This document shows positions 5,770 to 56,673 of a DNA stretch of 64,000 nt, in pieces. This DNA is from an uncultured Candidatus Saccharimonas sp. (GTDB lineage Bacteria; Patescibacteriota; Saccharimonadia; Saccharimonadales; AWTP1-31). The position numbers and the translations under genes are program-made. The notes beneath the pieces are model-generated. The model was not told the DNA's origin and did not search any database. It saw only the letters and a program-made list of their open reading frames with translations. The stretch is taken from contig CALRBE010000003.1 in the NCBI GenBank assembly GCA_943354005.1, positions 30,153 to 94,152 of the forward strand, written 5' to 3'. Every line of letters starts with the position of its first letter. The first letter of the stretch is position 1.

Positions 5770-5791
5770 TAGATACAATGAGGAGATTAAA

Positions 5792-6880: not shown

Positions 6881-6888
6881 GGAATACC

Positions 6889-8242: not shown

Positions 8243-9222
8243 GATCTCCATGGATGCTAATAGTCTGGCTCTTTATATTTTTGCTTTATTTTAGATACTA
8301 CAAAAAACGCAAGAAAAGTACCGGTAGTAAAAAACCTGTTGCTAATAGTAAATACATGACAGAACTTGAATCCTATAAAAAAGCGCTTAAAAAGTATACT
8401 TTATTAATAAGATTAATGGCTTTGTTTCTAGCATTTATATTTTTACTGATAATTATTTTAAGCGTAAGACCAGCAGTTAAAACAATTGAACGACCGGATC
8501 TAACTAATCGAGATATCATCCTGTGCCTAGATGTTTCGGGTTCAATGAGAGAGACAGATGCTAAAGTCGTAGAGAATTTTGCGGAACTAGCAAAAGGATT
8601 TAAGGGTGAACGTATTGGAATGGTAATATTTGATAGTACGGCAGCAACACTGTTCCCATTAACTAATGATTACAACTATGTTATTGATATACTAAATAAA
8701 ACTAAAGCTGCTTTTAATAGTGAAAATTATAGTGAATCCAATTATGATCTATTCACTGGAACTAATGAAGGGGAAGGCTCATCTTTAATCGGAGATGGGC
8801 TTGCATCATGTGTCCTACGTTTCGATAAATTGGGCACAAAGCGATCACGTTCAGTAATTCTAGCTACAGATAACTACGCAAATGGCGCTCAGATTGTAGA
8901 TTTAAAGCAGGCCGGTGCACTAGCAAAAAAGAATGATGTACGAGTTTACGGATTAAACCCCGATGATAGGAACGACGGAGATTATAAAGATAAAAATTCA
9001 ATAGAATTCCGAGAAGTAGTTCTTGGCACAAACGGTGACTATTATAAATTTGAAAGTCCCGGCTCAATACCAGGAATTATTAGTAAAGTATCTCAGCAGG
9101 AAGCAACACGGTTTAAGGGCAGTCCGGTGTTAGTAACCTCTGATAAACCCCAGCTAATCATCTTAATTATTGTTTTTAGTACTGTAATTCTACTATTCAT
9201 CGTATGGAGGCTAGGCATATGA
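8233..9222 (+). CDS. VWA-domain protein, BatA-like (N- and C-terminal TM helices)
   Basis: MIDAS motif LCLDVSGSM. TM helices at both ends. Confidence 0.75.
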   Translation: MVLRSPWMLIVWLFIFLLYFRYYKKRKKSTGSKKPVANSKYMTELESYKKALKKYTLLIRLMALFLAFIFLLIIILSVRPAVKTIERPDLTNRDIILCLDVSGSMRETDAKVVENFAELAKGFKGERIGMVIFDSTAATLFPLTNDYNYVIDILNKTKAAFNSENYSESNYDLFTGTNEGEGSSLIGDGLASCVLRFDKLGTKRSRSVILATDNYANGAQIVDLKQAGALAKKNDVRVYGLNPDDRNDGDYKDKNSIEFREVVLGTNGDYYKFESPGSIPGIISKVSQQEATRFKGSPVLVTSDKPQLIILIIVFSTVILLFIVWRLGI

Positions 9223-10223
9223 TACTTAAACCGATACTAAATCCAATCATATTACTGGTACTATTCTCGTTAATTGGCATAGGTATGGCTATAATTACCT
9301 TACGTCAACCAAAAATATATCGAAATAAATGGCTAATAAGATGTGCCATGGTATTTATATTACTGGTACTTTGCTTTAGGCCTTCTTTAGCTGGAGGGAT
9401 TAGCGAGGGAGGAATTACTAACCTAGATGTAACGTACTTGGTCGACACTACGAGCTCCATGGCTGCAGAAGATTTTGACGGAAATAAGACTCGATTAAGC
9501 GGCGTAGCCAAAGACATAGAAAACATAACAGAGAATCTTGTAGGTGCAAGATTCTCACTTATTTATTTTACTTCGAAGGGTTACTTAGCTTTACCATATA
9601 CTACAGATACTAATGCCGTTGACAGTCAAGCGAAAACACTGAATCAAGAAATTACTTTTTACGCAAAAGGAAGCAGTATCGATGCTCCAATTGACTTAGT
9701 GAAGCAGCAGCTAATTGAAGCAGAAAAAAATAGTCCTGAAAGATCAAGAACTATTATATATTTTGGCGACGGTGAGCAAACAGTAAATTCTAAGCCTAAA
9801 TCATTTGAACCATTGAAAAACTATATAGATGGAGGGCTTGTTCTAGGATACGGTACAGCCGCAGGCGGCAGAATGAAAGAATACAATGATTTCTCAACCG
9901 ACGAAGAGATTAAGTACATTGTAGATTATGGCCAGAGAATAAATCCACCTCCTGATGCGATTTCTAAAATTGATGAAAAAAATCTTAAAAATATTGCCAC
10001 TCAGTTGGGTGCAAAATATGAACAACGCTCAAAGAATACAGATACGGCATCACTTGTAAAAGCACTAAATACCGCCAAGCTAACTAAAAAGGCTAAAGAT
10101 GTTGCCGGATCAACTGATTTATACTGGATAATAATCATGCCTTTAGGACTTCTATTGCTCTTCGAAGCCAATCGAATTTTAAAATTATATTCTGAGATAA
10201 AGACAGGTAAAAAACATGAATGA
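9204..10223 (+). CDS. VWA-domain protein, BatB-like
   Basis: MIDAS-like motif YLVDTTSSM. Two N-terminal TM helices and one C-terminal TM helix. Confidence 0.7.
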   Translation: MEARHMILKPILNPIILLVLFSLIGIGMAIITLRQPKIYRNKWLIRCAMVFILLVLCFRPSLAGGISEGGITNLDVTYLVDTTSSMAAEDFDGNKTRLSGVAKDIENITENLVGARFSLIYFTSKGYLALPYTTDTNAVDSQAKTLNQEITFYAKGSSIDAPIDLVKQQLIEAEKNSPERSRTIIYFGDGEQTVNSKPKSFEPLKNYIDGGLVLGYGTAAGGRMKEYNDFSTDEEIKYIVDYGQRINPPPDAISKIDEKNLKNIATQLGAKYEQRSKNTDTASLVKALNTAKLTKKAKDVAGSTDLYWIIIMPLGLLLLFEANRILKLYSEIKTGKKHE

Positions 10224-42878: not shown

Positions 42879-43367
42879 TTGCGGTACAATAGCTACATTG
42901 TGAAGAAGAAAAATACACAACCAAAGCTGATTTCCAACCGACGCGCTCGTCATGACTATGAAATTGACGATACACTTCTTGTTGGCATGCAGCTTACTGG
43001 AGCCGAGACTAAAGCACTGCGCCACGGGCACGGACAGCTTCGTGGTGCCTATATTACGGTAAAAGACGACGAACTATACTTACTTAATGCTACTATCTCA
43101 AGCTTGCCCGGAGTATCGATTCCTGAAGCAGAACAGACTAGAACACGAAAGCTTCTTGCAAAACGCAGCGAAATTAATAAACTTATTGCGCTTAAACAAC
43201 AGGGCAACGCAATAGTGCCGCTAGCAATACTAACTGGTAATCGCTACATAAAACTACGTATTGCAGCTGGACGAGGAAAGAAACAGTACGATAAACGCCA
43301 AACACTCAAAGCTAGAGATCAAAACAGGGAAGCTAACGCAGCGATTAAAGATAAGGTACGCTCATGA
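42879..43367 (+). CDS. smpB: SsrA-binding protein SmpB
   Basis: ISNRRARHDYEIDDTLLVGMQLTGAETKALRHG...LYLLNATIS is the canonical SmpB core. Confidence 0.85.
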   Translation: MRYNSYIVKKKNTQPKLISNRRARHDYEIDDTLLVGMQLTGAETKALRHGHGQLRGAYITVKDDELYLLNATISSLPGVSIPEAEQTRTRKLLAKRSEINKLIALKQQGNAIVPLAILTGNRYIKLRIAAGRGKKQYDKRQTLKARDQNREANAAIKDKVRS

Positions 43368-43870
43368 GTGAAGATGCAATAGTTCATATTTTTAACGAAG
43401 ATAATGTCAAAATAGGCGAGATTCCACGTAAGGATCTCACAATCGAGCATAAATGGCGGATTATTTGCGTATGGATTGAAAATGACAAAGGCGAAACCTT
43501 GCTACAGCAGCGATCACTAAAGAAAACACATGGCCCTGGTCTCTGGACGGTCGCAGTTGAAGGAACAGTTGAAAATGACGATTCATTTGAGGAGACAGCA
43601 AGAAGAGAAATCGAAGAAGAAATTGGACTTAAAGAATTTACAATGACAACAGCAAAACGTATTAGCTTTGAAGCCGCAACTGGCTGGAGAGATGCCCAAG
43701 GATATATCGTCCGATGTAACTGGCCAATAGAAAAATTTACTGTTCAAGCTAGTGAAGTCGAGAAGTTGCAATGGAAGAACAAAAAAGATGTTATTCGTGA
43801 AATGAAGGCTCAAGATCCTAAGTATCCAAAACAAGCCCCAATCTGGCTTGAAATGTTTGACCTTGTCTAG
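43364..43870 (+). CDS. NUDIX hydrolase
   Basis: Nudix box GTVENDDSFEETARREIEEEIGL. Confidence 0.75.
   Translation: MSEDAIVHIFNEDNVKIGEIPRKDLTIEHKWRIICVWIENDKGETLLQQRSLKKTHGPGLWTVAVEGTVENDDSFEETARREIEEEIGLKEFTMTTAKRISFEAATGWRDAQGYIVRCNWPIEKFTVQASEVEKLQWKNKKDVIREMKAQDPKYPKQAPIWLEMFDLV
43840..43870. repeat. 31-bp direct repeat, copy 1 (3' end of NUDIX gene including its stop)
   Basis: AATCTGGCTTGAAATGTTTGACCTTGTCTAG. An identical copy lies at 44762-44792, and flanking similarity extends the match to about 55 bp. Confidence 0.8.
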
Positions 43871-43906
43871 CGGACTGTTTTTCTAGTTATATTGCCCCTG
43901 GAGTAT

Positions 43907-44500
43907 TTAAGCCAAATCACTACTAAGATACTTCTTAAGCAAAGAAAAGGGATCAACGTCTTCAATTGATTTTAGGTATTCTTTCCACTCTTTATCATCT
44001 AGTTCAGCAAGGCTTTTATTTGGAAAGGTTGGATGGCCATATACATATAGTAAATCCGTCCACCCATGAAGATTTGTACCTTTTGGTTTATTAGTTATAA
44101 ATCCAACCTCGTTGGCAACTAGTACTTTATCCTTTTTGCCATCATAGTAAGCAACCGCGTATGAAAAGATAGCTCTTCGATCTTTTTCGTCTGCCATAAG
44201 CTTTATAAGTCCCTTATAGCTAAAACTATCAAGCAGTAATTTCACAAATGGCCCTGGAAAGCCATTAAGTGCAGGTATAAAAAAGCCTCTATCATCGACA
44301 ATGATTTTTTTATTTGGAAATGCTTTTTTTGCTTGAGCTAGTTTATATTTTGCGACAGCTTCTATACTTAATTCACGCCCCTCATCAAAGTCGTAAATCT
44401 GTTGCTTCAGAGTAATGCCGATTGAGCCCAACTGTTTTTTAAGACTCTCATATTTCTTTTTATTTGATGTAATAAAATATATATCTTGCGCCTGTTTCAT
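43907..44500 (-). CDS. Ham1/ITPase-family non-canonical purine NTP pyrophosphatase, divergent paralog A
   Basis: FITSNKKK (vs ATGNxGK) and DDRGFFIPALNGFPGPFVK (vs DDSGL.VDALNGAPGVYSAR) match the ITPase/RdgB core. Confidence 0.65.
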   Translation of the reverse strand: MKQAQDIYFITSNKKKYESLKKQLGSIGITLKQQIYDFDEGRELSIEAVAKYKLAQAKKAFPNKKIIVDDRGFFIPALNGFPGPFVKLLLDSFSYKGLIKLMADEKDRRAIFSYAVAYYDGKKDKVLVANEVGFITNKPKGTNLHGWTDLLYVYGHPTFPNKSLAELDDKEWKEYLKSIEDVDPFSLLKKYLSSDLA

Positions 44501-44761
44501 CTAATAATCTCCTTAATAAGTATATCCTCGTCCCAAATACCCCTTACTTTACGTCTAAGGTATAAGTAATATATTTTTAATGTAGAGTCGTAGACTTTAG
44601 TATCAATATCAGGGTTATTCACTTTAACTCCATACATTAAGATAAATATCATATTGAATACGAATATGCAATTCTATAAAAGTTAACTGCAATTGGTCAA
44701 TACAAAAGACGTTATTAGGTTAATGATAACTAAAGACCTAGTATTTCCAAAAGCAAGTAAC

Positions 44762-44792
44762 AATCTGGCTTGAAATGTTTGACCTTGTCTAG
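44762..44792. repeat. 31-bp direct repeat, copy 2
   Basis: Identical to 43840-43870. It preserves the reading frame of the last 13 codons of the NUDIX gene but has upstream stops, so it is a non-functional gene-end copy. Confidence 0.8.
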
Positions 44793-44834
44793 TGGGCTGT
44801 TTTTAGATATAATTTGACAGTTGTAGAACAATAT

Positions 44835-44909
44835 TCGGGAGTAGCTCAATGGTGGAGCAAGAAGCTGTTAACTTCGAGGTTGCCGGTTCGAGTCCGGCCT
44901 CCCGAGCCA
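44835..44909 (+). tRNA. tRNA-Asn (anticodon GTT)
   Basis: Cloverleaf: acceptor TCGGGAG/CTCCCGA, D-stem GCTC/GAGC, anticodon loop CTGTTAA (U33, GUU, A37), T-arm GCCGG-TTCGAGT-CCGGC, discriminator G, encoded CCA. Confidence 0.9.
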
Positions 44910-44914
44910 ATCAT

Positions 44915-44940
44915 AAGCACTTTTTAGGAAGTGCTTTTTT
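44915..44940 (+). terminator. rho-independent terminator after tRNA-Asn
   Basis: AAGCAC-loop-GTGCTT hairpin followed by TTTTTT. Confidence 0.5.
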
Positions 44941-44992
44941 CAATAGAATATAAATAATATACATATGAGTAAACTATATTTAAGAAATCTTT

Positions 44993-45832
44993 ATGGAAAG
45001 ATCTGAAATAATTATCCCTGTTTTTAATGGCGAGCGACATCTGGGCAGTCTACTGGAATCATTATCGCATCAGACTATAGAACAATACTCGGTAACGATC
45101 GCGGACAATGGATCAACTGACGGGTCGATTGCGGTCGCAGAAAGTTTTAGGGATATATTCGAGCTAAAAATTATTGATGCATCTCGCAAGCAGGGCAAGG
45201 CTGTTGCACTCAACGAAGCCGTAATAAAATCCTCTGCTCAAAAATTGATCTTTGTTGATCAAGACGATATGGTTAACACTTCATACGTTGAATCCATGGC
45301 TGAAGCCATCGCGCAAAATCCTTTAGTGGCATCAACTATGGACGGAGAATTGTTAAACAAGAAGTTCGAGGTAGCACCACGGATTATTACCCGCGATCAA
45401 AGACTAGGGCATTTTGCCATTACGACCGTCTCGGGTGGAACAATGGGCATGACTAGAAAGGCTTTTGAGCACATAGGCGGTTTTAATGAGGACTTTAATT
45501 ATTCAACTAATGATGCAGAATTTTGCCAACGAGCTTACGCAAAGGGTTATGATTTTAAGCTTGTCTATGATGCAACCTTGTTTTACCGATTGCGCGATAC
45601 TCTTATTGGTAATTTACAGCAGGGCATAGGATATGGCATAGGAAACTACCAACTTGCTAAAATTCACCCGGAAATGCGAGGCGACCAAGCTACATCTAGA
45701 CAACTGCTTCAGGAAACAATCGCACTAGCTGGAAACTTTATAGCTAATAAATCTAATAGGGCGCGTAACTCTCATCTTATTGGAAAAAATGTCGGGCAAA
45801 TGCAAGAAAAGTTACGAACTTTTCTTTACTAA
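44993..45832 (+). CDS. glycosyltransferase family 2
   Basis: IIIPVFNGERHLGSLLESLSHQT...ADNGSTDGS and a DQDD motif. Confidence 0.7.
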   Translation: MERSEIIIPVFNGERHLGSLLESLSHQTIEQYSVTIADNGSTDGSIAVAESFRDIFELKIIDASRKQGKAVALNEAVIKSSAQKLIFVDQDDMVNTSYVESMAEAIAQNPLVASTMDGELLNKKFEVAPRIITRDQRLGHFAITTVSGGTMGMTRKAFEHIGGFNEDFNYSTNDAEFCQRAYAKGYDFKLVYDATLFYRLRDTLIGNLQQGIGYGIGNYQLAKIHPEMRGDQATSRQLLQETIALAGNFIANKSNRARNSHLIGKNVGQMQEKLRTFLY

Positions 45833-46222
45833 ATAATTAAATACATCTACGTAGTAGGGGTCCATCGAGCTGTCTATTCCCCGAATAATTATTTCTTCTA
45901 CGCTAAGCCACTCATAGCCTTGATGTTCCCAGCTTAAGCGTACCGCTAAATCATTTTCACTAACATTCGCGTTAAAAAGTACGTGATTTACATTAGGGTA
46001 ATTTATTTCAAAAGCCTCACTTGTTTGACTGCTCGTAATTACGATGCCTGTTTCTTCTTGAATCTCACGGATAATTGCATCTTTAATTTGCTCTCCCTCT
46101 TCGACTTCACCACCCGGAAGGTCTAAGTGTCCAGGAAAATGTGGATGTGTCTTACCCCTATATAGCAAAAGTAGCTTTCCGTCTAAATTACGGACTAAGG
46201 CCTTAGCAACGATCTTCTTCAT
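45812..46222 (-). CDS. NUDIX hydrolase
   Basis: Nudix box GGEVEEGEQIKDAIIREIQEETGI. 136 aa. Confidence 0.75.
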   Translation of the reverse strand: MKKIVAKALVRNLDGKLLLLYRGKTHPHFPGHLDLPGGEVEEGEQIKDAIIREIQEETGIVITSSQTSEAFEINYPNVNHVLFNANVSENDLAVRLSWEHQGYEWLSVEEIIIRGIDSSMDPYYVDVFNYLVKKSS

Positions 46223-46275
46223 CTAACCAGTTTAGCATCCTTGCTAAATATATAGAAGTATGATAAAAATACCTT

Positions 46276-46917
46276 ATGAATTCAACAGAGGTGAAGTCAT
46301 TTTTCGAGTATGACGTAGAAAGTCGTATAATTAAATCTGATAAACTATCATGCAACATCGACGAAGCATTAAAAAGAGTCCAAGCATGGAAAAAAAATGG
46401 TTTTACAATAGTCTTTACTTCGGGGGTCTTCGACATTCTTACACTAAATCACCTACTGGGATTGTATCACTACAGAATGCTGGGTGGAGATAAAACTAAG
46501 CTTGTAGTATCCATAGATACCGATGAACGTGTTAAATCATCAAAAGCTTTCAATACTTCTAAGGGCGGGTCAGTTAAACCAATCTTGTCTTGGGATAACC
46601 GAGCACTGATGATTGCGAAGCAAGCCACTAACGAGAGTAACATACTAGTAGACCTAATTCTTCAGCACGGAAGTGACACCTGCAGAGGTGTATGTCCGCA
46701 TGACGATAACGTAAGTATTGCAGAAAATTTACAACCAGACTTAGTAGTAGTTAACAGTAAGAGTCGGGATACTATTTCGAAGCTAGAACAAAGTACTATA
46801 ATTTCAAGTAATAATATACTAATTATTCAAGAAGAAGAATTAGCATATGAAGATGAACTACTTGGTGGCAAAATCAGTAATGCCAAAATTATAAATAGGA
46901 TAAAAAATGGAAACTAA
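46276..46917 (+). CDS. cytidylyltransferase-like (HIGH-nucleotidyltransferase fold) protein with degenerate HxGH motif, paralog 1
   Basis: TSGVFDILTLNHLLGL aligns to the G-x-FD-x-x-H-x-GH motif with H replaced by T and G by N. The C-terminus LLGGKISNAKIINRIKNG resembles the ISST-x-I-x-RI motif of TagD/RfaE-type enzymes. Confidence 0.4.
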   Translation: MNSTEVKSFFEYDVESRIIKSDKLSCNIDEALKRVQAWKKNGFTIVFTSGVFDILTLNHLLGLYHYRMLGGDKTKLVVSIDTDERVKSSKAFNTSKGGSVKPILSWDNRALMIAKQATNESNILVDLILQHGSDTCRGVCPHDDNVSIAENLQPDLVVVNSKSRDTISKLEQSTIISSNNILIIQEEELAYEDELLGGKISNAKIINRIKNGN

Positions 46918-47617
46918 CGCAGAGTTAACAAATAACTTTATTAATCAGTCTATAAATAACCGTATCGTCAATTGGACTGGTGAAGATAAGTGTACTGCAG
47001 AAGCTACGAGTACACTTGTAGATACTTGGCATCGAACTGGAAGCTTTGTTGTGGCAAATGCTGGCGGCTATGACTCTATGGGCCTTAATCACCTGAGAGG
47101 CCTAATGCAAGCACGAATTATTGGTGCGATACACCTGTTAGGTGGCGAGGGGAGTGTAAACGATATTTATGAACTTGCAAGTTCAGAAGATATTCGACTG
47201 CTTATTTCACTAGATACAAACGATGCACTTGAAGAGAACAAATCATATAAAGCAAACGGTGCCTACTCTGTTCGGCCTTTACTCGATTGGGATACTAGAG
47301 CGCGCACCCTCGCACTTCAAGGATTTGGAGGCGGTCGTGAATTAGTAGACTTCATAACTAAGCATGGTCCACTTGCATGTAGCGTTTGCGTAGCGGAAAG
47401 TTGCAATCACTCAAGTAAAACATTCAATATTGCCGATAGTGGAGCAGATCTAATTGTATTGAAGGATATTAATACTGACCAATTAGCTAACTATCCAAAC
47501 ACTTCGTTTCATGTGATAGAAGAGACAGAGGGAGCCTTCCATGACAAATTACTCGGTGGGCAAATCAGTACCTCAGCACTTGTTCGGCGCATAATTCAAA
47601 AAGATAAAAAAATATGA
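46907..47617 (+). CDS. cytidylyltransferase-like protein with degenerate HxGH motif, paralog 2
   Basis: NAGGYDSMGLNHLRGL and C-terminal LLGGQISTSALVRRI are co-linear with the upstream gene (tandem duplication). The two genes overlap by 11 nt. Confidence 0.4.
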   Translation: METNAELTNNFINQSINNRIVNWTGEDKCTAEATSTLVDTWHRTGSFVVANAGGYDSMGLNHLRGLMQARIIGAIHLLGGEGSVNDIYELASSEDIRLLISLDTNDALEENKSYKANGAYSVRPLLDWDTRARTLALQGFGGGRELVDFITKHGPLACSVCVAESCNHSSKTFNIADSGADLIVLKDINTDQLANYPNTSFHVIEETEGAFHDKLLGGQISTSALVRRIIQKDKKI

Positions 47618-48597
47618 GTAGGCCGCTAGTTTCAATTCTTATTCCAGTTACAAAAAATGAAGCAGATTGTTTACCGGCAACACTTCATTCAGTCAGGGAG
47701 GATATAAAAAATTTTGGTAAAAAGTCAGAGATTATAGTCATCGCAAATAACTGTAAGGGAACAAGTGATCTGGTTGCAGAGGATGTATTCGGGAGTGAAG
47801 ATTTCAAAGATGATATGGCAGTTGGCAAAGTGATACATTGCGACACACCAGGTAAGATGTTTGCAGTCAACAAGGGCATCGATATTGCCGAGGGCAAGTA
47901 CCTAATCCTTATTGACGGCGATTTACTAATGGATCCGGGTTCAATCGCTTGGACGGTTGACGCGATAGATAAACCCGACGTCACGGTTGTAAGTATGCAT
48001 CACGTGCCAATTGAAGGTACGTTGCCGGAAGATGCAGATCTCGCTCGCGTAATAATGATGAACTCCTACCGTCGCCATTCTTTCCCAGAAAAGTACTGGC
48101 TACACGGCGCATATTTAGGATGGTCAAGCAGCTTCATGATTGAGGGTGAAACCCTTCGATTTCCTGCAGGTGCTCGTGTTCATGAGGATAATTGGTTAAC
48201 TGCAATTATTGCTAGAGATTACGGCTTTCATACAATACGAGTTACAAAGAACTATATGGCTCGTTTTATACCTCCGCAAACCTGGGAGGATTACTACCGT
48301 CAACAGTGGAGATATCAGTTTGCGCACAAAGACCTTGAGGAAAGTTTTCCAGAACTTGCTGAATTTATACCTACAATACGTCGGTGGACAAACAATAAAT
48401 ATCCAGAAGATTGGATCGACAGAGAATGGCGTGAAAAGTGTATCTTTGAGGGTATTGATTTTGATGAGTTTATTAGTATATATAATAAAGTACTCGCTAA
48501 AGTCCGCACGGGTCGTCAAGAGTCACGTGAGTTGCTTGATAAAAACGGAGTTTGGAAACAGCAAATTACAACCAAGCATGATAGGCGAAATGAATAA
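47614..48597 (+). CDS. glycosyltransferase family 2-like protein
   Basis: VSILIPVTKNEADCLPATLHSV... and a DGDLLMD (DxD) motif. Start overlaps the previous gene (ATGA). Confidence 0.6.
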   Translation: MSRPLVSILIPVTKNEADCLPATLHSVREDIKNFGKKSEIIVIANNCKGTSDLVAEDVFGSEDFKDDMAVGKVIHCDTPGKMFAVNKGIDIAEGKYLILIDGDLLMDPGSIAWTVDAIDKPDVTVVSMHHVPIEGTLPEDADLARVIMMNSYRRHSFPEKYWLHGAYLGWSSSFMIEGETLRFPAGARVHEDNWLTAIIARDYGFHTIRVTKNYMARFIPPQTWEDYYRQQWRYQFAHKDLEESFPELAEFIPTIRRWTNNKYPEDWIDREWREKCIFEGIDFDEFISIYNKVLAKVRTGRQESRELLDKNGVWKQQITTKHDRRNE

Positions 48598-48653
48598 CCA
48601 ATAGAGTCAATCCTAAAGATTTAATTCATTAATAGCCATAATGCTGCCGATTA

Positions 48654-48669
48654 GAGTCCGGCCTCCCGA
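48654..48669 (+). repeat. direct repeat of tRNA-Asn 3' end (putative att-type repeat)
   Basis: GAGTCCGGCCTCCCGA is identical to tRNA-Asn positions 44890-44905. It is followed by a hairpin plus T-tract, like the tRNA terminator. Confidence 0.6.
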
Positions 48670-48711
48670 TCCAAAATGATTTTGCTTAATGAACTTCGTT
48701 AGAAGTTATTT

Positions 48712-49329
48712 TTGTTTGATATAGTTATAACCATGAATATAGAAGAACAACAGCTATTAGATAAGTTAAGGTTGGCAGTAAAAGAGCGTTCCGACGATGA
48801 TAATTTCGTTCATCATAAATGGTTTATAAAATACCACTTGGAAATAGTAGAAAACATTGCCACCGAACTTTGTGAGAAATATTTGGATGCCAATAGATTC
48901 AAAGTATTGGTATTGACGTGGTTGCATGACTACGAAAAGATTATAGACTTTGACAACCAATATAATACAGAGCTTGAAGCGACTAAAGATCTTATGCGAA
49001 TGATTGGATTTAAGTCTGATTTTATTGAAGAAATAGCTATTGATCTCAATACGTATAATGCTAAAGAAAATCTACAAGTCGCATCGATAGAAATCCAAAT
49101 CGTTTCCTCGTCTGATGCTGCATCACATTCTGTCGGGCCGTTCGTGTGCCTTTATTGGTATGAAAATCCAACGCTTAGTGTTGATGAGCTTATGGCAGCC
49201 AACATTCGAAAAATTTCAGTTGATTGGGAAAAGAAAATTACGCTACCTGAAGTAAAAGAAGCGTTTGCAAAATACCGTGCCTTTAATTTGCAAGTTGCTG
49301 GTCAGCTTCCAGAAAAATACCTTATTTAA
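48712..49329 (+). CDS. HD-domain phosphohydrolase-like protein
   Basis: FVHHKW...H...LTWLHDYEKI fits an H...HD pattern. Confidence 0.4.
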   Translation: MFDIVITMNIEEQQLLDKLRLAVKERSDDDNFVHHKWFIKYHLEIVENIATELCEKYLDANRFKVLVLTWLHDYEKIIDFDNQYNTELEATKDLMRMIGFKSDFIEEIAIDLNTYNAKENLQVASIEIQIVSSSDAASHSVGPFVCLYWYENPTLSVDELMAANIRKISVDWEKKITLPEVKEAFAKYRAFNLQVAGQLPEKYLI

Positions 49330-49332
49330 TAT

Positions 49333-49479
49333 TCAAACAGCCAAAACATCCATAATTGTTTGTAGCTTTTGTTTATCAAAGTCTATACTTGCAGTTCGCA
49401 ACTCGTCAATAACTTTAGCGACTTTCTCGATAACCCAGATTTTTGTGTGAATATCGCCAACTGCCAATACTTTTCCCAT
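49333..49479 (-). CDS. small ORF (48 aa) with strong RBS; N-terminal segment duplicated as a remnant at 53425-53475
   Basis: Minus-strand ATG at 49479 is preceded by TAGGAGA. Protein is MGKVLAVGDIHTKIWVIEKVAKVIDELRTASIDFDKQKLQTIMDVLAV. Segment TKIWVIEKVAKVIDE recurs as TKTWIIDKVAKLIKD (no start codon) at 53425-53475. Confidence 0.3.
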   Translation of the reverse strand: MGKVLAVGDIHTKIWVIEKVAKVIDELRTASIDFDKQKLQTIMDVLAV

Positions 49480-49513
49480 ATCTTCAGTATCTCCTATAAA
49501 AGTTTAGCTATAC

Positions 49514-49711
49514 TTACCGAGTAATCTTTCGTATACGCTCTCGTATCGACTCTTGATACAGGACAGGATTTTGCATTTGGTGATATGCGCGAACGGCGAT
49601 AACCTCAAAACGATCATCATCAACGAGATAAATAACTGCGACTTTATGATTTTTCTTCTTAATCTTACGCACATCTGGGTCATCCTTAAACACAGAGTTA
49701 GATCGTGGCAA
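49514..49711 (-). pseudogene. RelE/ParE-family toxin C-terminal fragment (probable remnant)
   Basis: HKVAVIYLVDDDRFEVIAVRAYHQ matches the RelE/ParE core (xRIIYxVDDExxxVxILRIxHR). The ORF is only 65 aa and lacks the N-terminal half. No antitoxin lies upstream. Confidence 0.4.
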
Positions 49712-49732
49712 GTTTTGCAGGCTTGCTATAGT

Positions 49733-50482
49733 CTACATATCTGTTTCGTTCAACGCGTCTTGTATAACAACATTAGGGTTGAACTCATAATCTATTCCAC
49801 GGATTAGAACCGCTGGTTTGTTGGTGCCACGTTGCCCCATGATTAATGCAGCTGATGCTGCAACCATGTCGCACAAAGTCTCTTCAGCAACTTGTGTTTT
49901 ACCTTCATCGGATATAGACTCAGTTACTCTAAGTGGAGGTACACCATATACGCCAATTGCTAATTGTGTAGCGCCTTTTTTGTCTTCACGGCCATCACTA
50001 TCAGTAATGATTATGCCCACATTGATTCCTGTAGTTTCTAGGATTCTTTGGCCTATTCGCTTGGCACTTTCATCGGAATTTTCTGGTAACAATATGACAG
50101 TCTCGGCACTCATCTTATCTACGCCCGCGCTAGTAAGTCGCAAGCCGTTAGGCAACCAACCAGCAATATAATTACCCTGAATCTCCAATCTACTTCCATC
50201 AGGCTTACCGGTCTCATCAATCATGAGCTGTAAAGTACGTACGTCTTTACGTGGTACTCGTTCGTGTATTTGTTTAGCAATTTCTCCCGCATCAACATCT
50301 ACCAAATTAATTTGTCTTTGCTCAGCAATTGACACTGCTTTTGAGGCAACACAAATGATGTCATTTTCTTCCAATATAATGCCGGCTGATTTAATTGCAG
50401 TTAAGAGGATGTCTCCGATTTCTTGTCCAGACTCAATGTAGGGTATGTTTGGTAATGTTTCTACGGTTATACGGTCGCTCAT
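49733..50482 (-). CDS. CofE-family gamma-glutamyl ligase-like protein (F420-0:L-glutamate ligase homolog)
   Basis: Co-linear with CofE: LPENSDESAKRIGQRILETTGINVGIIITDSDGR and KPAVLIRGI match the family blocks LPENPDESA...GVIITDTNGR...PAVVVRG. Confidence 0.75.
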   Translation of the reverse strand: MSDRITVETLPNIPYIESGQEIGDILLTAIKSAGIILEENDIICVASKAVSIAEQRQINLVDVDAGEIAKQIHERVPRKDVRTLQLMIDETGKPDGSRLEIQGNYIAGWLPNGLRLTSAGVDKMSAETVILLPENSDESAKRIGQRILETTGINVGIIITDSDGREDKKGATQLAIGVYGVPPLRVTESISDEGKTQVAEETLCDMVAASAALIMGQRGTNKPAVLIRGIDYEFNPNVVIQDALNETDM

Positions 50483-50712
50483 AAGTTAACTCCTTGTTTA
50501 CTTAATAATAGTCGAGTTCTCATGATTGCGCGAGAGGACATCTTGAACTTATTATCTTTAGCATAAGTTTCAACCGTGACTAATGAATCGTTTTGGAAGT
50601 ATTTAAAAATCCTGTTGAGGATAGTATCGTAACCTACTTCTCCTTCTGTTACAGGTACGTATTCCTTTTGTCCGTTTGAGAATACATAGTGTTTTTTTGA
50701 TATACTTAACTT

Positions 50713-51255
50713 ATGAAAATATACTTTATAACTGGAAATGCCAGAAAAGTTGGCGAGGCGAAGCTTGCTTGTGAGCTCGCAGGAATAGAAATAGTTCAAC
50801 AGCAAGTAGAAATTGATGAAATCCAATCGACAGTTCCTCACGCTATATCTATTGATAAAGCCGAGAAAGCATACAATTTAATCAAGAAACCTCTGGTTGT
50901 AACGGACACCTTTTGGAGAATACCGGCACTTAATGGTTTCCCCGGAGCATACATGAAAGATATCGCTAACTGGTTTAGTAGTGAAGATTTCCTTTCACTT
51001 ATGGAAATGAAAGAAAACAGACAGATATTCTTTAGTGAGAATATTACTTATAAAGATACTGAAACCATTAAGCAATTCTCGCAGGAATATGAGGGAATTA
51101 TTGTCACAGAGCCTAGAGGAACGGGAAATAGTATAGAAAATGTTGCCCAATTCGAAGGATTCACCCTGGGTGAGAGACGTGAACAAGGTGGATACAGCCA
51201 TAAGCCTGAAGATTATGTTTGGAATGATTTCGTAAAATGGATTAACAAAAAGTAA
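50713..51255 (+). CDS. Ham1/ITPase-family NTP pyrophosphatase, divergent paralog B
   Basis: MKIYFITGNARK, TDTFWRIPALNGFPGAYMK and EPRGTGNS match the ITPase core. It shares the ALNGFPG(P/A)(F/Y)(V/M)K variant with paralog A. Confidence 0.65.
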   Translation: MKIYFITGNARKVGEAKLACELAGIEIVQQQVEIDEIQSTVPHAISIDKAEKAYNLIKKPLVVTDTFWRIPALNGFPGAYMKDIANWFSSEDFLSLMEMKENRQIFFSENITYKDTETIKQFSQEYEGIIVTEPRGTGNSIENVAQFEGFTLGERREQGGYSHKPEDYVWNDFVKWINKK

Positions 51256-51410: not shown

Positions 51411-52151
51411 ATGAAACTATACCTATCATCCTATCGTCTAGGGAACTTCAGTGAAGAACTTATTAAGCTAGTTGGTATACCGCAGGCAAAAGTTGCCATC
51501 ATATCTAACGCCGTTGATTGGTCTACGGATACTAAGAGAATCGAGGAAAGCATTAATAGTGAATTCAAAGATATGAAAAGTCTTGGATTTAAACCGACCC
51601 TACTGGACCTAAGAGATTATTTTGATAAACCTGGTCTTACAGAATATCTCAGCGGATTTGATATGGTCTGGGTAAGGGGCGGTAATGCATTTATCTTAGT
51701 TAAGGCGATGAAGCAAAGCGGATTTGATGATGTTATAGAGAAGCTTATAAAACCTGGAAAGTTAGTATACGCAGGTTATAGTGCTGCCTTTTGTGCAGTC
51801 AGTCCGTCTCTGAGAGGCGTCGAGTTAGTTGATGATGTAAATGCTAAAGCTAAGGGTTATAAAGATTTTGATGTCTGGGAAGGTTACGGCCTAATAGACT
51901 TTTATCCAATCGTCCACTTTAGATCAGATCACCCTGAGTCCGCAGACGTCGAAAAAGTATATGATTACGTTAAGGGTAAGGGTATGAAGCTTAAGACGTT
52001 TAGTGACGGTGATGCTTACATCGTTAATGGGGATTCTGAAAAAGTATTTTCCCGAAATATACCTCACACTTCCATCTCTACAGAGAGCCAAGCTAAAATA
52101 CTATGGGCGTTAGTAGTTATAGCCTCCTCAATCGTGGCGAGCCAGGCATAA
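51411..52151 (+). CDS. peptidase S51 family (PepE/cyanophycinase-like, class I glutamine amidotransferase fold)
   Basis: VWVRGGNAFIL...AGYSAAFCA matches the S51 GGNTF and nucleophile-Ser region. Start chosen at the Met preceding KLYLSSY. Confidence 0.6.
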   Translation: MKLYLSSYRLGNFSEELIKLVGIPQAKVAIISNAVDWSTDTKRIEESINSEFKDMKSLGFKPTLLDLRDYFDKPGLTEYLSGFDMVWVRGGNAFILVKAMKQSGFDDVIEKLIKPGKLVYAGYSAAFCAVSPSLRGVELVDDVNAKAKGYKDFDVWEGYGLIDFYPIVHFRSDHPESADVEKVYDYVKGKGMKLKTFSDGDAYIVNGDSEKVFSRNIPHTSISTESQAKILWALVVIASSIVASQA

Positions 52152-52178
52152 GCACTTTGTGAAAGCAAAGTGTTTTTG
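52152..52178 (+). terminator. rho-independent terminator after S51 peptidase gene
   Basis: GCACTTTG-GAAAG-CAAAGTG hairpin followed by TTTTT. Confidence 0.55.
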
Positions 52179-52197
52179 TTTGTGAGACAATGAATCT

Positions 52198-52569
52198 ATG
52201 CAAGTTTTAGGAATCGCACTATCTTTGTTTCTTCTGTTTTTTGCAGTATTCCAATTACTTTTGGTTATGGGAGCACCTTACGGCGAAGCTGCTTGGGGAG
52301 GACGGCAAGGAAAAATATTGCCTAGAAACTATCGCATCGCAAGTATATTCTCTTGCTTGTTCTTTATCTTTTCTATCCTGGTAGTCCTATCAGCAACAGG
52401 GATAATTGATTTGTTTAGTTCGTCATTTGTAGACGGCTACATGTGGTTTCTTACAGTATATTCAGGTTTGGGAATTATTATGAATGCAATCTCTAGGAGC
52501 AAAATAGAAAGATATTGGGCACCAGTTATAGCTGTGATGTTTATTCTGTGCCTTATGATAGTGCTGTAA
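52198..52569 (+). CDS. small integral membrane protein
   Basis: 123 aa with four hydrophobic helices. Confidence 0.45.
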   Translation: MQVLGIALSLFLLFFAVFQLLLVMGAPYGEAAWGGRQGKILPRNYRIASIFSCLFFIFSILVVLSATGIIDLFSSSFVDGYMWFLTVYSGLGIIMNAISRSKIERYWAPVIAVMFILCLMIVL

Positions 52570-52723
52570 TTATTTAACTGGCATCATGTCCACAACTGCG
52601 AGCCAAGCAGGAATAGACTAAGTCAGAAATGTTATTTCAGTTCTATATTATTTGTATGCCCTGAATAGTACTGAAACTAAATATATTACCTATTTACAGA
52701 TAAAGTACGCTACTATTAGTATT

Positions 52724-53413
52724 ATGAAATCAGTTGGAGTTATTGGCGGTCTAGGACCAGAAACAACCGCAGAGTTTTATCTGGAAGTTATTTTTAACTG
52801 TCAAAAGCAGAACTCTACTCAGCGACCACTGGTTGTAGTGTCTAGTGTTCCGCTATTGTTCGAAATAGAACGAAATCTTATTGAAAGTAATACCGGCAAG
52901 GAACGATATATCCCCTTTTTGACCACTGAAGCGCAGAGACTAGAGAAATCTGGCGTAGACTTTATTGTCATGCCATGCAATTCTCTGCACGTTTTTATTG
53001 ATGACATTCGTAAATCCGTAAATATTCCTGTCTTGAGCATAGTCGAAGAAACCGTAAAGTATCTAAAAGAAAAGGGACTCTCAAAAGTTGGTATAATATC
53101 TACCTCAGCAACAATCGCTAATCAAGTCTATGAATCAAAGCTTTTAGAGGCTGAAATTAAGTTCGTAACACCCGACAATCTACAAAAAGCAAAGATGGAT
53201 AAAATTATTCAACGCTTGATAGAGGGCCAGCACCTAAATAAAGATAGGGAAGCTATTATGGAAATCGCTCACGACCTTGCGACCCAAGGCGTTGACTGCA
53301 TTGCTTTAGCTTGTACTGACTTACAGTTACTATTGCCGAGCAGTGAAGAAGTTCCAGTATTCGATACTATGAAAATTCTTGCCAATGCAACGGTTCGAGA
53401 TATTTTGACCTAA
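52724..53413 (+). CDS. Asp/Glu/hydantoin racemase family protein (aspartate racemase-like)
   Basis: MKSVGVIGGLGPETTAEFY N-terminal motif and a later ...CTDL...-type cysteine region (ALACTDLQLL). Confidence 0.75.
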   Translation: MKSVGVIGGLGPETTAEFYLEVIFNCQKQNSTQRPLVVVSSVPLLFEIERNLIESNTGKERYIPFLTTEAQRLEKSGVDFIVMPCNSLHVFIDDIRKSVNIPVLSIVEETVKYLKEKGLSKVGIISTSATIANQVYESKLLEAEIKFVTPDNLQKAKMDKIIQRLIEGQHLNKDREAIMEIAHDLATQGVDCIALACTDLQLLLPSSEEVPVFDTMKILANATVRDILT

Positions 53414-53526
53414 CATTTGGCAGCCTAATTGTCTTTAATAAGTTTGGCGACTTTATCAATAATCCATGTTTTTGTTATAAACTAACTATGCATGATTAAT
53501 GTATTAAAACGTAAGCAAGAGTAACA

Positions 53527-54018
53527 ATGAACAAAAAAACACTAGTAATCGTAAGTATCGTTGTCGGAATATTTTTAGTTGGTGCAGGCGCATTAGCCTA
53601 TACAAGTGATCAAAATAAGAAAAAAGATGCTGCAAAAGGTGAAATGATGAAAAATGGTGAAGTGGCCATCGTAGAGAATGATGATATGGCCAAAGAAGGC
53701 GATGTCACTATGATCAAAGGCAGCTTTACAGATTATGACGTTGCTAAGTTAGCTAATGCTGAAAAAGGTGATGTTGTCTTATACTTTAGTGCTCCTTGGT
53801 GCCCAACTTGCCAAGAAGCAAACAAAAACTTTAATGCTTCGAGCGCCCCGGATGGCTTAACATTACTCAAAGTAGACTACGACAGCTCAACAGATCTTAA
53901 GAGAAAGTACGGTGTGACCTATCAGCACTCTTTTGTCCAAGTAGACAAAGATGGAAAATTGCTCAAAAAATGGAACGGCTCAAATACCTACGATCAGCTA
54001 AAAGCAGAAATTATATAG
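53527..54018 (+). CDS. membrane-anchored thioredoxin-like protein
   Basis: N-terminal TM helix. WCPTC active site in YFSAPWCPTCQ. Confidence 0.8.
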   Translation: MNKKTLVIVSIVVGIFLVGAGALAYTSDQNKKKDAAKGEMMKNGEVAIVENDDMAKEGDVTMIKGSFTDYDVAKLANAEKGDVVLYFSAPWCPTCQEANKNFNASSAPDGLTLLKVDYDSSTDLKRKYGVTYQHSFVQVDKDGKLLKKWNGSNTYDQLKAEII

Positions 54019-54052
54019 TCGATATAATCAATTTGGGGGGTAAACAAACAAT

Positions 54053-54802
54053 ATGCTACTACTGATAACATCATTCCTAGCTGGTATTCTGACAGTCTTC
54101 GCACCATGTGTCTTGATACTATTGCCAGTCATTGTTGGTAGCTCGCTTGCTACAGATGAGGATGAAGAAATTGATAAGAAAAAGCCCTACATAATTTCTT
54201 TTAGCTTGGGGGTATCTGTTCTATTGTTTACTCTACTGCTAAAAGCGAGCACAGCATTAATAAGTATCGATCCGCAAGTCTGGAAGATAATATCTGGCGG
54301 TATCGTTATTCTGTTAGGTTTAAGTCTGCTATTTCCAATGATGTGGGCCCGATTAAGTGTCATGGTTGGTCTAGAAAAAAAATCAAATACACTTCTTTCG
54401 AAAGCCTCAAAGAAATCTGGTATTGGCGGGTACATCCTCACTGGTGCGGCACTTGGTCCAGTATTTTCAGCCTGTAGCCCAGTCTATTTTTTAATCCTAG
54501 CAACGGTATTACCGGTCAATTTTGGGCTTGGATTAGTATATATGACTCTCTATGCAGCGGGATTAACCTTAGCTTTATTAGCCATTGCTCTAGCGGGTCG
54601 TAGATTAACAAAACGGATGAACTGGAGTGCTAAGCCCAATGGCTGGTTTCGCAGGTCGCTAGCAGTCCTACTTATATTGGTTGGGTTAGCTGTAATTACT
54701 GGCGTCGATAAAACAGTCCAGACTTGGATACTTACTAACTCGCCAATTAACAGCACTCAACTTGAAGAAAAGCTCATACCAAGCAGCGATACAAAACAAT
54801 AA
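54053..54802 (+). CDS. ccdA: CcdA/DsbD-transmembrane-domain family thiol-disulfide transporter
   Basis: Six TM helices. Conserved Cys positioned in TM1 (FAPCVLILLP) and TM4 (FSACSPVYF). Confidence 0.65.
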   Translation: MLLLITSFLAGILTVFAPCVLILLPVIVGSSLATDEDEEIDKKKPYIISFSLGVSVLLFTLLLKASTALISIDPQVWKIISGGIVILLGLSLLFPMMWARLSVMVGLEKKSNTLLSKASKKSGIGGYILTGAALGPVFSACSPVYFLILATVLPVNFGLGLVYMTLYAAGLTLALLAIALAGRRLTKRMNWSAKPNGWFRRSLAVLLILVGLAVITGVDKTVQTWILTNSPINSTQLEEKLIPSSDTKQ

Positions 54803-54886
54803 ATGAGCTGTCGTAAAAAATTATATTGGTAATTATCTGAGCTGAATACTACTAAAATAATATAGAGTGCGATATTATAAACAGTA

Positions 54887-55813
54887 ATGAAGTACGCAAT
54901 AGACGCCCAGAAACTTACTAAAAAGTTTAAAAATAATATAGCAGTTAATGGAATTGATTTAAAAGTTGCAGAGGGCAGTATCTACGGGTTTCTTGGACCA
55001 AATGGTGCCGGTAAATCAACTACAGTTAAGATGCTGATCACTTTGCAGACGCCAACAACAGGTGATGCAAAAATACTAGGAAAAAGCATTACAAAAGATG
55101 CCGACGATGTCCGACTAACTATTGGCGCCGCCCTCCAGGAAGCATCTTTAGATAATATGCAGACCGGTAGAGAGTTATTGCGAACTCAGGGGGCACTATA
55201 CGGATTGAGCTCAGCGGAAATTAATAGCAGAATTTCAGAACTGGAGAGTTTAATAGATATAGGTTCGGCACTTGACGATTTGATCAAGACATACTCAGGA
55301 GGCATGAAGCGACGGGTTGATTTGGCTGCAGCATTAATTCACAACCCTTCAGTGCTATTTTTAGACGAACCTACAAATGGTTTAGATCCTGCAAGTAGAA
55401 ACAAAATTTGGACAGAGATTAAAAAACTAAATTCAGATTTCGGAATGACTATTTTTTTAACTACCCAATACTTAGAAGAAGCCGATGAACTTGCAGATAT
55501 AATCGGAATTATCAATAATGGCAAAATTGTTGCAGAAGATTCACCAGCAAACTTAAAGATGCAAATAGGTAGTGACGTAATAATAATTGAACTAAAATCG
55601 GTGCTTAAGGATGTAAAAAAACTAGAAAAAATTTCTGGTGTTACTTCTGTCAAATCACAAGGTAATTCACTATCGATCTATGCAAAAAATGGTGGTGCCG
55701 TTATTTCTAGCGTTGTCAGTACCTTGCATGATTTGAATGCAACTATAGTGAACGTAGAAATCAGAAAACCAACACTTGATGATGTATTTTTGAAGGTCAC
55801 AGGGGAGGCATAA
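54887..55813 (+). CDS. ABC transporter ATP-binding protein
   Basis: Walker A GPNGAGKST, signature YSGGMKRR, Walker B LFLDEPT. Confidence 0.85.
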   Translation: MKYAIDAQKLTKKFKNNIAVNGIDLKVAEGSIYGFLGPNGAGKSTTVKMLITLQTPTTGDAKILGKSITKDADDVRLTIGAALQEASLDNMQTGRELLRTQGALYGLSSAEINSRISELESLIDIGSALDDLIKTYSGGMKRRVDLAAALIHNPSVLFLDEPTNGLDPASRNKIWTEIKKLNSDFGMTIFLTTQYLEEADELADIIGIINNGKIVAEDSPANLKMQIGSDVIIIELKSVLKDVKKLEKISGVTSVKSQGNSLSIYAKNGGAVISSVVSTLHDLNATIVNVEIRKPTLDDVFLKVTGEA

Positions 55814-55818
55814 GTAAC

Positions 55819-56607
55819 ATGAAAGATACACATATTACTGCATCATCGGCTAGTTTTTTTAAAGACTTAAAAACAGTAGCAAAGCGTGCGATTCGACTTG
55901 CGGGTCGCGAACCAGAAACACTAATACCGGCTATTATAATTCCATTGTTTTTCTTTATAGTTAATGTTGGAGCACTCAGTGATATATCTAATTTTGCAGG
56001 AGTAGACGACTACAAAGCATTCCAGTTACCAGTAGCGATTGTATTCGCTGTAACAGGCATTTCTAGAGCATCATCCTTAGTTTCAGATATCCAGAGTGGC
56101 TACTTTGACCGCCTTTTAATTTCTCCTGTCAGTAGACATGCACTCTTACTCGGCCTAATGGTTGCTGACATGTTGGTCGTGATTCTTCTAAGTATACCGG
56201 TAATAATACTTGGACTAGTCTTAGGTGTCAGTTTTGCATCTGGTGTACTAGGTATGCTGGTGTTTATATTACTTGCTGCTCTTTGGGGATTAGCGTTCAC
56301 TGGATTCCCATATGCTATCGCACTTAAAACGGGAAACCCTGGAGCCGTTAACTCGTCGTTTCTATTATTCTTTCCATTTGCGTTTTTGACCACAACATTC
56401 TTACCTAAAGAAGCCTTGACTGGTTGGCTTGCAACTGTTGCTACTTATAATCCAGTTACATACCTTTTAGAGGGATTACGTTCGCTTACGACTACCGGAT
56501 GGGTATTAGAAGACCTACTGCCAGCTATAGCTGCTATAGCTGCTGTTGGCTTATTGTCTCAGATACTTGCATTCAAAACCTTAAAAAGCCGTACCGCACG
56601 CAAGTAA
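55819..56607 (+). CDS. ABC-2 type transporter permease
   Basis: 262 aa with six TM helices. Directly downstream of the ABC ATPase. Confidence 0.7.
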   Translation: MKDTHITASSASFFKDLKTVAKRAIRLAGREPETLIPAIIIPLFFFIVNVGALSDISNFAGVDDYKAFQLPVAIVFAVTGISRASSLVSDIQSGYFDRLLISPVSRHALLLGLMVADMLVVILLSIPVIILGLVLGVSFASGVLGMLVFILLAALWGLAFTGFPYAIALKTGNPGAVNSSFLLFFPFAFLTTTFLPKEALTGWLATVATYNPVTYLLEGLRSLTTTGWVLEDLLPAIAAIAAVGLLSQILAFKTLKSRTARK

Positions 56608-56673
56608 AGATTGACCGCGTGAATATAATCACAAGGTTAAACATTATGTTGAAAAGCATGTATTATTAGATTA

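Follow-up and report, generated by a model that had tools for sequence, protein, structure and literature searches.

A Ham1 pyrophosphatase gene between direct repeats of a NUDIX gene end beside tRNA-Asn in an uncultured Candidatus Saccharimonas: a probable single-crossover insertion

Prophages and islands that sit at the 3' ends of genes, such as e14 and phage 21 in icd of E. coli or the islands at tRNA and tmRNA genes, leave a displaced fragment of the target gene behind. Such elements supply a new gene end and encode their own integrase. Campbell-type integration and unequal crossing-over between direct repeats belong to general RecA-dependent recombination. A further class, the cis-mobilizable elements (CIMEs), has been reviewed in PMC5704250. 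In a 64,000-nucleotide stretch of an uncultured Candidatus Saccharimonas sp. (contig CALRBE010000003.1, positions 30,153 to 94,152), referred to here as the window, a gene for a predicted pyrophosphatase of the Ham1/ITPase family (Ham1-A) lies between two copies of the 3' end of a NUDIX hydrolase gene, next to the tRNA-Asn gene. Like CIMEs, this unit has no integration or transfer genes and is bounded by direct repeats (attL and attR in CIMEs) which include the 3' end of the target gene, and it has an empty site in relatives and tandem arrangements at the same site (PMC5704250). We consider it rather likely that the unit goes back to a Campbell-type, single-crossover insertion of a small operon between NUDIX and tRNA-Asn, most likely by homologous recombination.

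An earlier note on this DNA, made from the sequence alone, had reported a 31-bp perfect direct repeat copied from the end of the NUDIX gene, and this was confirmed. The 31-mer AATCTGGCTTGAAATGTTTGACCTTGTCTAG has two exact copies in the window (Table 1), no further copy with up to three mismatches was found there, and 100 shuffles gave no match. The flanking similarity, which had been put at about 55 bp, extends much further. The repeat is the core of a longer duplication of ~128 bp, in which 43766-43891 and 44687-44811 were aligned by blastn with 100/128 identities and indels, and the duplicated segment comprises the last ~118 bp of NUDIX and 12 bp past its stop codon. Since tblastn read NUDIX residues 135-168 in two frames of the right copy, this copy is a decayed, frameshifted 3' pseudogene fragment of NUDIX. 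Independent assemblies show the same repeat structure in over 20 contigs (ENA, NCBI and JGI), and the repeat in the window is therefore no assembly artefact.

The two copies differ in their arms. In every filled allele the left copy consists of the B arm, the core, (C/T/G)GG(A/G)CTGTTTTT and CTAGTTATATTG, and the right copy of the P arm, the core, TGGGCTGTTTTT and AGATATAATTTG; the sequences that follow the core are called P' in the left copy and B' in the right. The short extension of the left copy matches the right copy fully in strains L001, L136 and L138. Perfect identity extends over 31 bp (window), 42 bp (L001) or 45-57 bp (other strains). Beside the core, the right copy has GCAAGTAAC in the window and in L049 and GCAAGCCCC(G/A) or CAAGCCCCA elsewhere, a three-base block change that looks like conversion from the left copy. 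Conversion-like patches were also seen at the core edges, with GTAAC versus GCCCC on the left and C, T or G after the TAG on the right. Two readings of these flanks were tried and rejected. The P arm was taken to carry an ancestral 'WVN' codon state and hence to be foreign, which depends on gap placement (TGGCCAGTAC vs TGGAAGAAC), and P' was taken to hold an internally deleted tRNA remnant (CCTGGAGTATTTAAGCCAAATCA), for which the similarity is too weak, its AGCCAAATCA portion belonging to the coding sequence of Ham1.

An empty site, as the earlier note had predicted, was found in L011, the metagenome-assembled genome 'uncultured Candidatus Saccharimonas sp. RH-23may17-1275', which is the closest relative in the genome collections and 92.6% identical over 4.2 kb. 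Here NUDIX is followed by 45 bp and then tRNA-Asn, and Ham1-A is absent. Up to and through the core, L011 differs from the left copy of the window by one base; past the core it tracks the flank of the right copy (TGGGCT.TTTTT AGATATAATTTGACAG, then the tRNA). L011 thus reads B-core-B', where the window reads B-core-P'-cargo-P-core-B'. Private single-nucleotide differences of L011 lie on both sides of the core, and it is therefore a genuine haplotype and no chimera. These results bore out the proposal that an insertion at the NUDIX gene end left the repeat as its footprint.

More distant relatives gave a consistent picture. Among the contigs of the NUDIX homologues, 27 of which were aligned (39-98% identity), the conserved gene order is CobA, an AAA_33 kinase, GT2, a GH42-like gene, smpB and NUDIX, and the order smpB-NUDIX is kept in all relatives. 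The NUDIX stop codon is followed by tRNA-Asn at a distance of 57-103 nt in five lineages (L006, L007/8, L010, L013 and L015), with NUDIX identities of 45-59%. From this comparison of gene orders, smpB-NUDIX-tRNA-Asn was shown to be the ancestral arrangement. Homologues of Ham1-A, with or without three upstream genes, have no flanking repeat in most Saccharibacteria; a flanking repeat around the Ham1 operon was seen only in the lineage of the window and in the L036 lineage. In lineages with 74-78% Ham1 identity, the operon lies just downstream of tRNA-Asn.

The insert had been described as a segment with exactly one gene and an AT-rich region upstream of it. In the window the insert is indeed cut down to Ham1-A, but the unit was originally larger. 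Most strains of this species-level population carry between the same repeats a longer insert, an operon of overlapping genes on the minus strand (Pfam), and this long form was found in at least 12 contigs. The long unit is 2,479 bp, with a core-to-core period of 2,479-2,480 bp, and has four genes, for AdoMet_dc (S-adenosylmethionine decarboxylase), a BpsA_C-domain protein which is a BpsA-like aminopropyltransferase, a Guanylate_kin-like P-loop kinase and Ham1. Compared with the long-form contig L041, the window lacks 1,546 bp of the operon (L041rc 5614-7159), comprising most of AdoMet_dc, all of BpsA_C and nearly all of the kinase. The single-gene state is explained by the loss of this stretch between two TTAATAA microhomologies, and the supposed single-gene cassette is, as judged from the alignment, a deletion derivative of the four-gene unit. 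The AT-rich region in turn holds an open reading frame of 51 aa, followed by the putative promoter region of the operon. This reading frame is an in-frame fusion of the first ~45 codons of AdoMet_dc with the six codons that end the kinase gene, and it is open in all short-form strains compared (the window, L001, L046, L049 and L051).

Both predicted enzymes match their family profiles above the curated cut-offs, with 80.3 bits against a cut-off of 22.5 for Ham1-A (PF01725, residues 7-171) and 63.8 bits against 21.1 for NUDIX (PF00293). Ham1-A has 365 homologues, many of them at 96-100% identity and from one well-sampled population. Its ratio of nonsynonymous to synonymous changes (dN/dS) was 0.06-0.20 between strains, and by this measure the gene is under purifying selection. 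NUDIX was called as 123 aa in L131, L041 and L047, and in L137 and L144 the kinase is replaced by a 136-aa open reading frame; such apparent frameshifts or truncations in NUDIX or the kinase suggest that selection may be relaxed on parts of the locus. No recombinase domain was found among the genes of the unit, its neighbours (NUDIX, smpB, GT2 and others) or the adjacent segments, and no relatives of the unit were found in phages or plasmids (blastn of the unit); a scan of IMG/VR for the core gave no exact match. An Rfam search of the unit gave no riboswitch or other RNA, the sole match being the tRNA.

The locus varies in copy number. The unit is present in zero copies in L011, in one copy in many contigs and in two copies in L141 (ENA GROS21-1_SAMEA9561213 scaffold_2044, 16,732 bp, gapless). 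In the latter, two units of exactly 2,479 bp stand in tandem with 4 differences between them; the cores are at 7837, 10316 and 12795 (window orientation), the flanks on both sides are normal, and P arm-core-P' forms the junction in the middle. The locus thus shows the marks of repeat-mediated copy-number variation, namely direct repeats around a unit of constant period and both deletion and tandem alleles. Besides these alleles, the population also holds two microhomology deletions. In L051 (JGI Ga0209087_1000851) and L052 (Ga0114977_10006417), the short Ham1 unit and the NUDIX pseudo-fragment are present and the intact NUDIX gene is gone: ~510 bp (window 43391-43900) are missing between TAGTTcATATT and TAGTTATATT, so that smpB is directly followed by Ham1. 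L139 was tried as a second empty allele and rejected, as its scaffold has a 100-N gap at the locus.

In all strains, L011 included, smpB, NUDIX and Ham1 are 96-97% identical to the window, as against 83-93% for genes that lie further to the left. One and the same short-form junction is shared by left-flank backgrounds that differ by 0.5% to ~11%, and on such identities the locus is a mosaic. Gain and loss are not separable by a tree because of this mosaicism, and an attempt to root the event from flank divergence was abandoned since no reliable tree could be obtained.

The duplication of the target may have its reason in the promoter of tRNA-Asn. The tRNA gene starts 42 nt past the right repeat copy, and a promoter-like site, which the earlier note had not mentioned, precedes it, with the -35 hexamer in the last two NUDIX codons and the stop codon and the -10 hexamer in B', 21 nt before the tRNA; lineages L006 and L007 have an equivalent, TTGTTT-18-TATAAT, at this position. 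Without duplication, an insertion between the NUDIX stop codon and the tRNA would part the essential, single-copy tRNA from its -35 hexamer and upstream region. After duplication, the left copy would complete the NUDIX protein and the right copy would drive tRNA-Asn. The core would be held identical by gene conversion and by selection acting on the two copies, and the rest of the right copy would decay. A tRNA-Asn promoter in the repeat thus probably explains both the site duplication and the conservation of the core, the target being duplicated because the NUDIX end would hold the -35 hexamer and the upstream part of this promoter.

The variation between strains fits this account. Over 11 distinct right-copy haplotypes, the fraction of variable sites was 0.28 in the P arm (44687-44751) and 0.15 in the 41-nt block containing the core, where the changes were confined to the GCAAG.... 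patch except one (L051). It was 0.07 in the spacer, -10 hexamer and leader ahead of tRNA-Asn, 0 in tRNA-Asn itself, and 0.06 in the 34 nt upstream of the operon (44653-44686), which hold the -10 hexamer of the candidate operon promoter. Along the right copy there is thus a sharp change, from a P arm that decays freely to a block that is conserved.

In the insertion that we favour, a single crossover would have joined the chromosome with a circular or tandemly arranged DNA carrying a homologous NUDIX-end segment, and it is from the layout B arm-core-P'-operon-P arm-core-B' that one crossover with such a donor is deduced. The homologous recombination machinery of the cell itself would have acted on the 31-57 bp of identical core, with no dedicated integrase. 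Later, in the window, 1,546 bp were lost within the unit. The direct repeats that flank the unit would then yield the empty allele by deletion and the tandem duplication by unequal crossing-over. Homologous recombination is favoured because the unit and its neighbours encode no recombinase, because the arms share at least 75 bp of homeologous sequence beyond the core, and because recombination between direct repeats is expected to give rise to deletions, tandem duplications and conversion patches. It is further favoured because Saccharibacteria take up and integrate DNA: they are naturally competent and incorporate DNA through homologous recombination (PMC10633639). The earlier note had left the choice between duplication and site-specific recombination. 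Site-specific recombination was not demonstrated: the unit has no recombinase, its homologous arms are ~120 bp or longer, and homologous recombination between direct repeats produces alleles with zero, one and two copies as well as the conversion patches.

Several observations weigh against this insertion. Neither an extrachromosomal circle nor a donor with a P arm-core-P' junction was seen, such a junction being present only inside the L141 tandem, and that two-unit allele comes from a single short-read scaffold. Two repeat-ended Logan contigs, L039 with a 29-nt terminal overlap and L050 which starts and ends in the core, were at first candidates for circles. They were not counted as such because any repeat-bounded segment gives contigs of this kind in a de Bruijn graph, and they are expected assembler output. 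The P arm is ~25-30% diverged from the B arm, as against a synonymous divergence (dS) of only ~0.10-0.14 across the whole set of alleles with the empty one. Because the divergence of the P arm exceeds that of the alleles, either the P arm would have arrived already diverged, or the insertion would be several times older than the coalescence of the alleles and L011 would be a precise secondary loss. A site-specific recombinase acting in trans is possible, and the inverted repeat CAAGCC-N7-GGCTTG in the core has the geometry of a tyrosine-recombinase core site. Finally, the promoter call is a consensus match, of a kind common in this AT-rich DNA, where 8 were found against 5.6 expected.

The foremost alternative is a non-autonomous, CIME-like site-specific element, which we regard as possible but unlikely. 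The unit would integrate and excise as a circle through an unlinked tyrosine or serine recombinase, supplied by the genome or a helper, with the core at the NUDIX end as attB and the 31-57-bp identity as the att core. Its attL/attR/attB logic is clean, as identity is limited to the core and the arms differ, and the tandem allele contains an attP-type junction; the inverted repeat at the left edge of the core (43832-43850) could belong to such a site. Moreover, 30-31-nt repeats of the tRNA-Asn 3' end bound two other segments that lack an integrase, a behaviour known from classical integrase targets, and a lineage at 78% identity has the operon within another repeat that abuts this end. Against these points, no recombinase is encoded in the unit, its neighbours or the adjacent segments, and no related autonomous element or integrase that uses this att is known; a search of IMG/VR, phages, plasmids and the fetched loci gave none. 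A site-specific system would also have no need of the homology between the P and B arms, which extends at least 75 bp beyond the core, and the variable edges of the identity resemble conversion tracts.

We give rather little credence to a purely local history without horizontal insertion, in which a segment of NUDIX 3' end, tRNA-Asn and operon was tandemly duplicated and two deletions followed. The ancestor would have had smpB-NUDIX-tRNA-Asn and then the convergent operon, as L036 and L053 retain without NUDIX, and L011 would be a later deletion between the repeats. Such a history requires three events where one suffices, although it agrees with the position of the operon just downstream of tRNA-Asn, in the same orientation, in the lineages with 74-78% Ham1 identity. 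Prolonged decay in place could account for the divergence of the P arm. The L011 NUDIX gene is no further from the filled alleles (dS 0.128) than these are from one another (0.10-0.12), and P' is weakly similar to B' (CTAGTTATATTG vs AGATATAATTTG). No remnant of a first tRNA is demonstrable by the left repeat, however, from which the Ham1 stop codon is only 24 bp away, and NUDIX adjoins tRNA-Asn in five lineages with unrelated genes downstream. It is very improbable that the repeat arose by chance, comes from faulty assembly or belongs to a dispersed family of intergenic repeats with no tie to the cargo; the last of these had been named as a refutation in the earlier note. Nothing was found in favour of any of them, and against them stand the absence of matches in shuffles, only two copies in 64 kb, the independent contigs from three sources, and no exact match to the last 30 bases of the repeat in IMG/VR or the JGI metagenome contigs.

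Compared with the described systems, the single-crossover insertion has a close parallel in Campbell integration and unequal crossing-over, with which the locus shares the B-core-P'...P-core-B' topology, zero, one or two copies at an exact period of 2,479 bp, and conversion patches; the identical core is short here. The unit is a CIME in form only. Unlike CIMEs, its arms share ~120 bp of homeologous sequence and not merely a short core, and its cargo is an ordinary housekeeping operon which is repeat-free in most Saccharibacteria. Of the features of a site-specific integrative element, bounding direct repeats and an empty attB in relatives (L011) were found, and an integrase or recombinase within or beside the unit was not. 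As with e14 and phage 21, insertion at a 3' end duplicated that end, and an intact gene and a pseudo-fragment flank the insert, but the resident NUDIX gene keeps its own end, the fragment on the tRNA side has decayed and there is no integrase. Like integron cassettes, the unit is small (~1-2.5 kb) and at a defined site; unlike them, it brings its own candidate promoter and lies opposite to the flanking gene, and no attC-like inverted repeat was found in 43883-44761 and no IntI, attI or integrase nearby. A transposon is not indicated, as there is no transposase and no inverted repeat of at least 20 nt at the unit ends, and the duplication of at least 118 bp compares with 2-14 bp for the target-site duplications of transposons. 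Of the categories described so far, the locus comes nearest to decayed integrative elements (CIMEs; PMC5704250) and to ordinary copy-number variation mediated by repeats. It is a real but fairly ordinary structural polymorphism, and represents no new mechanism, kind of mobile element or enzyme.

Table 1. Features of the NUDIX/Ham1-A/tRNA-Asn locus, in window coordinates.
Feature	Position	Strand	Remarks
smpB	42879..43367	+	Pfam SmpB 5e-42; stop overlaps NUDIX start; conserved left anchor
NUDIX hydrolase gene, intact, 168 aa	43364..43870	+	Pfam NUDIX 2e-17
B arm (NUDIX codons ~135-158)	43766..43839	+	homologous to decayed P arm of right copy
Terminator-like hairpin, CAAGCC-N7-GGCTTG and T-run	43832..43850	-	left copy, downstream of Ham1; putative function
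Left 31-bp repeat copy	43840..43870	+	last 10 NUDIX codons and TAG stop
Left repeat extension CGGACTGTTTTT	43871..43882	+	10/12 identical to right copy
P' spacer (CTAGTTATATTGCCCC...)	43883..43906		unit-specific; between repeat and Ham1 stop; absent from empty site
Ham1-A, Ham1/ITPase-family predicted pyrophosphatase, 197 aa	43907..44500	-	Pfam Ham1p_like 2e-22
Fusion open reading frame, 51 aa	44497..44652	-	stop overlaps Ham1 start (ATGA)
Deletion scar TTAATAA, 7-bp microhomology	44513..44519		TTAATAA at both ends of lost stretch in L041
Promoter-like site for operon, TTGACC-18-TAGAAT (10/12)	44671..44700	-	-35 inside P arm; putative function
P arm (decayed NUDIX fragment, residues ~135-158)	44687..44761	+	evolves like neutral DNA
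Right 31-bp repeat copy	44762..44792	+	perfect match to left copy
Promoter-like site for tRNA-Asn, TTGTCT-17-TATAAT (10/12)	44785..44813	+	-35 inside repeat; putative function
Right repeat extension TGGGCTGTTTTT (B' type)	44793..44804	+	empty site differs by one base: TGGGCTCTTTTT
tRNA-Asn (GTT)	44835..44909	+	ARAGORN; Rfam tRNA 64.5 bits; sole tRNA of window
Terminator-like hairpin and T-run	44915..44936	+	after tRNA-Asn

The surroundings of tRNA-Asn are variable as well. A 30-nt copy of the tRNA-Asn 3' end (27/30) lies at 48645-48674 of the window, 3.7 kb downstream of the tRNA. The segment 44910-48674 contains a GT2 gene, a second NUDIX gene (45812-46222, minus strand), two unknown open reading frames and another GT2 gene, with no integrase, and has by its layout the classical signature of a tRNA island without a recombinase. 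L011 lacks 44922-50679 of the window (5.76 kb; L011 6636-6640), and its tRNA-Asn is directly followed by the Ham1 paralogue B (window 50713-51255) and an S51 peptidase. The long-form strains (L041rc 7562-9897; L042-L045, L134, L135 and L142) have a different 2.3-kb segment downstream of tRNA-Asn, with a 103-aa open reading frame, an HTH_17 (excisionase-like) protein, a tyrosyl-tRNA synthetase and a 166-aa open reading frame. A perfect repeat of 31 nt from the tRNA-Asn 3' end bounds this segment, which encloses an essential-looking aminoacyl-tRNA synthetase gene. Further downstream, 52100-56636 of the window (4.5 kb) is replaced in L011 by 8063-9916 (1.85 kb), and a 21-mer at 52138-52158 resembles the tRNA-Asn 3' end and the terminator start (19/21), which taken alone is about chance level. 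At 1335-1364, within a 200-nt intergenic stretch, a tRNA-like T-arm and acceptor 3' end (GGGGGTTCGAATCCCTCCGCCCTAGCCA) was noticed. No tRNA or tmRNA was called there by ARAGORN or Rfam, and the feature may be what remains of an att site or of the end of a tRNA or tmRNA gene.

In the L036 lineage (78% Ham1 identity; also L037, L038 and L039), the four-gene operon lies within a different direct repeat of 176 bp. Identity between its copies (2777-2952 and 5689-5864) is 95%; they have an identical core and an arm that has diverged, and the right copy lies directly against the tRNA-Asn 3' end. One Logan contig of 2,941 bp is closed on itself by this repeat. When translated, the repeat gives a protein fragment (..LKLANNIEDLYLK..KKPFDL..) which Pfam fails to recognize. 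A resemblance to the C-terminus of a large serine recombinase was considered and rejected, as Pfam gave no support and the best E-value was 0.018, to unrelated families. Nothing resembling this repeat was found in the window.

The locus offers a cleanly resolved change of gene content in an uncultivated, genome-reduced bacterium of the Candidate Phyla Radiation (CPR). Empty, single, tandem, internally deleted and target-gene-deleted alleles occur at one locus in closely related strains, and recombination at a 31-57-bp repeat, together with two microhomology deletions, can account for every one of them. The end of a protein gene that doubles as the promoter of an essential, single-copy tRNA would be the reason for the duplication of the target. 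Going further, the 2.5-kb unit might be a recombinase-less cassette that moves between strains of Saccharibacteria: it would leave as a circle through recombination of its flanking repeats, enter a new cell by natural transformation and be integrated by RecA at a short 'portable homology' made up of the gene end and the tRNA-Asn promoter, an idea we put forward only tentatively and think unlikely as it stands. If true, it would be a general, integrase-free route for the shuffling of operons around tRNA-Asn in the reduced genomes of Saccharibacteria, a generality that may be considered because the operon of the L036 lineage is bounded by a different, 176-bp repeat at tRNA-Asn.

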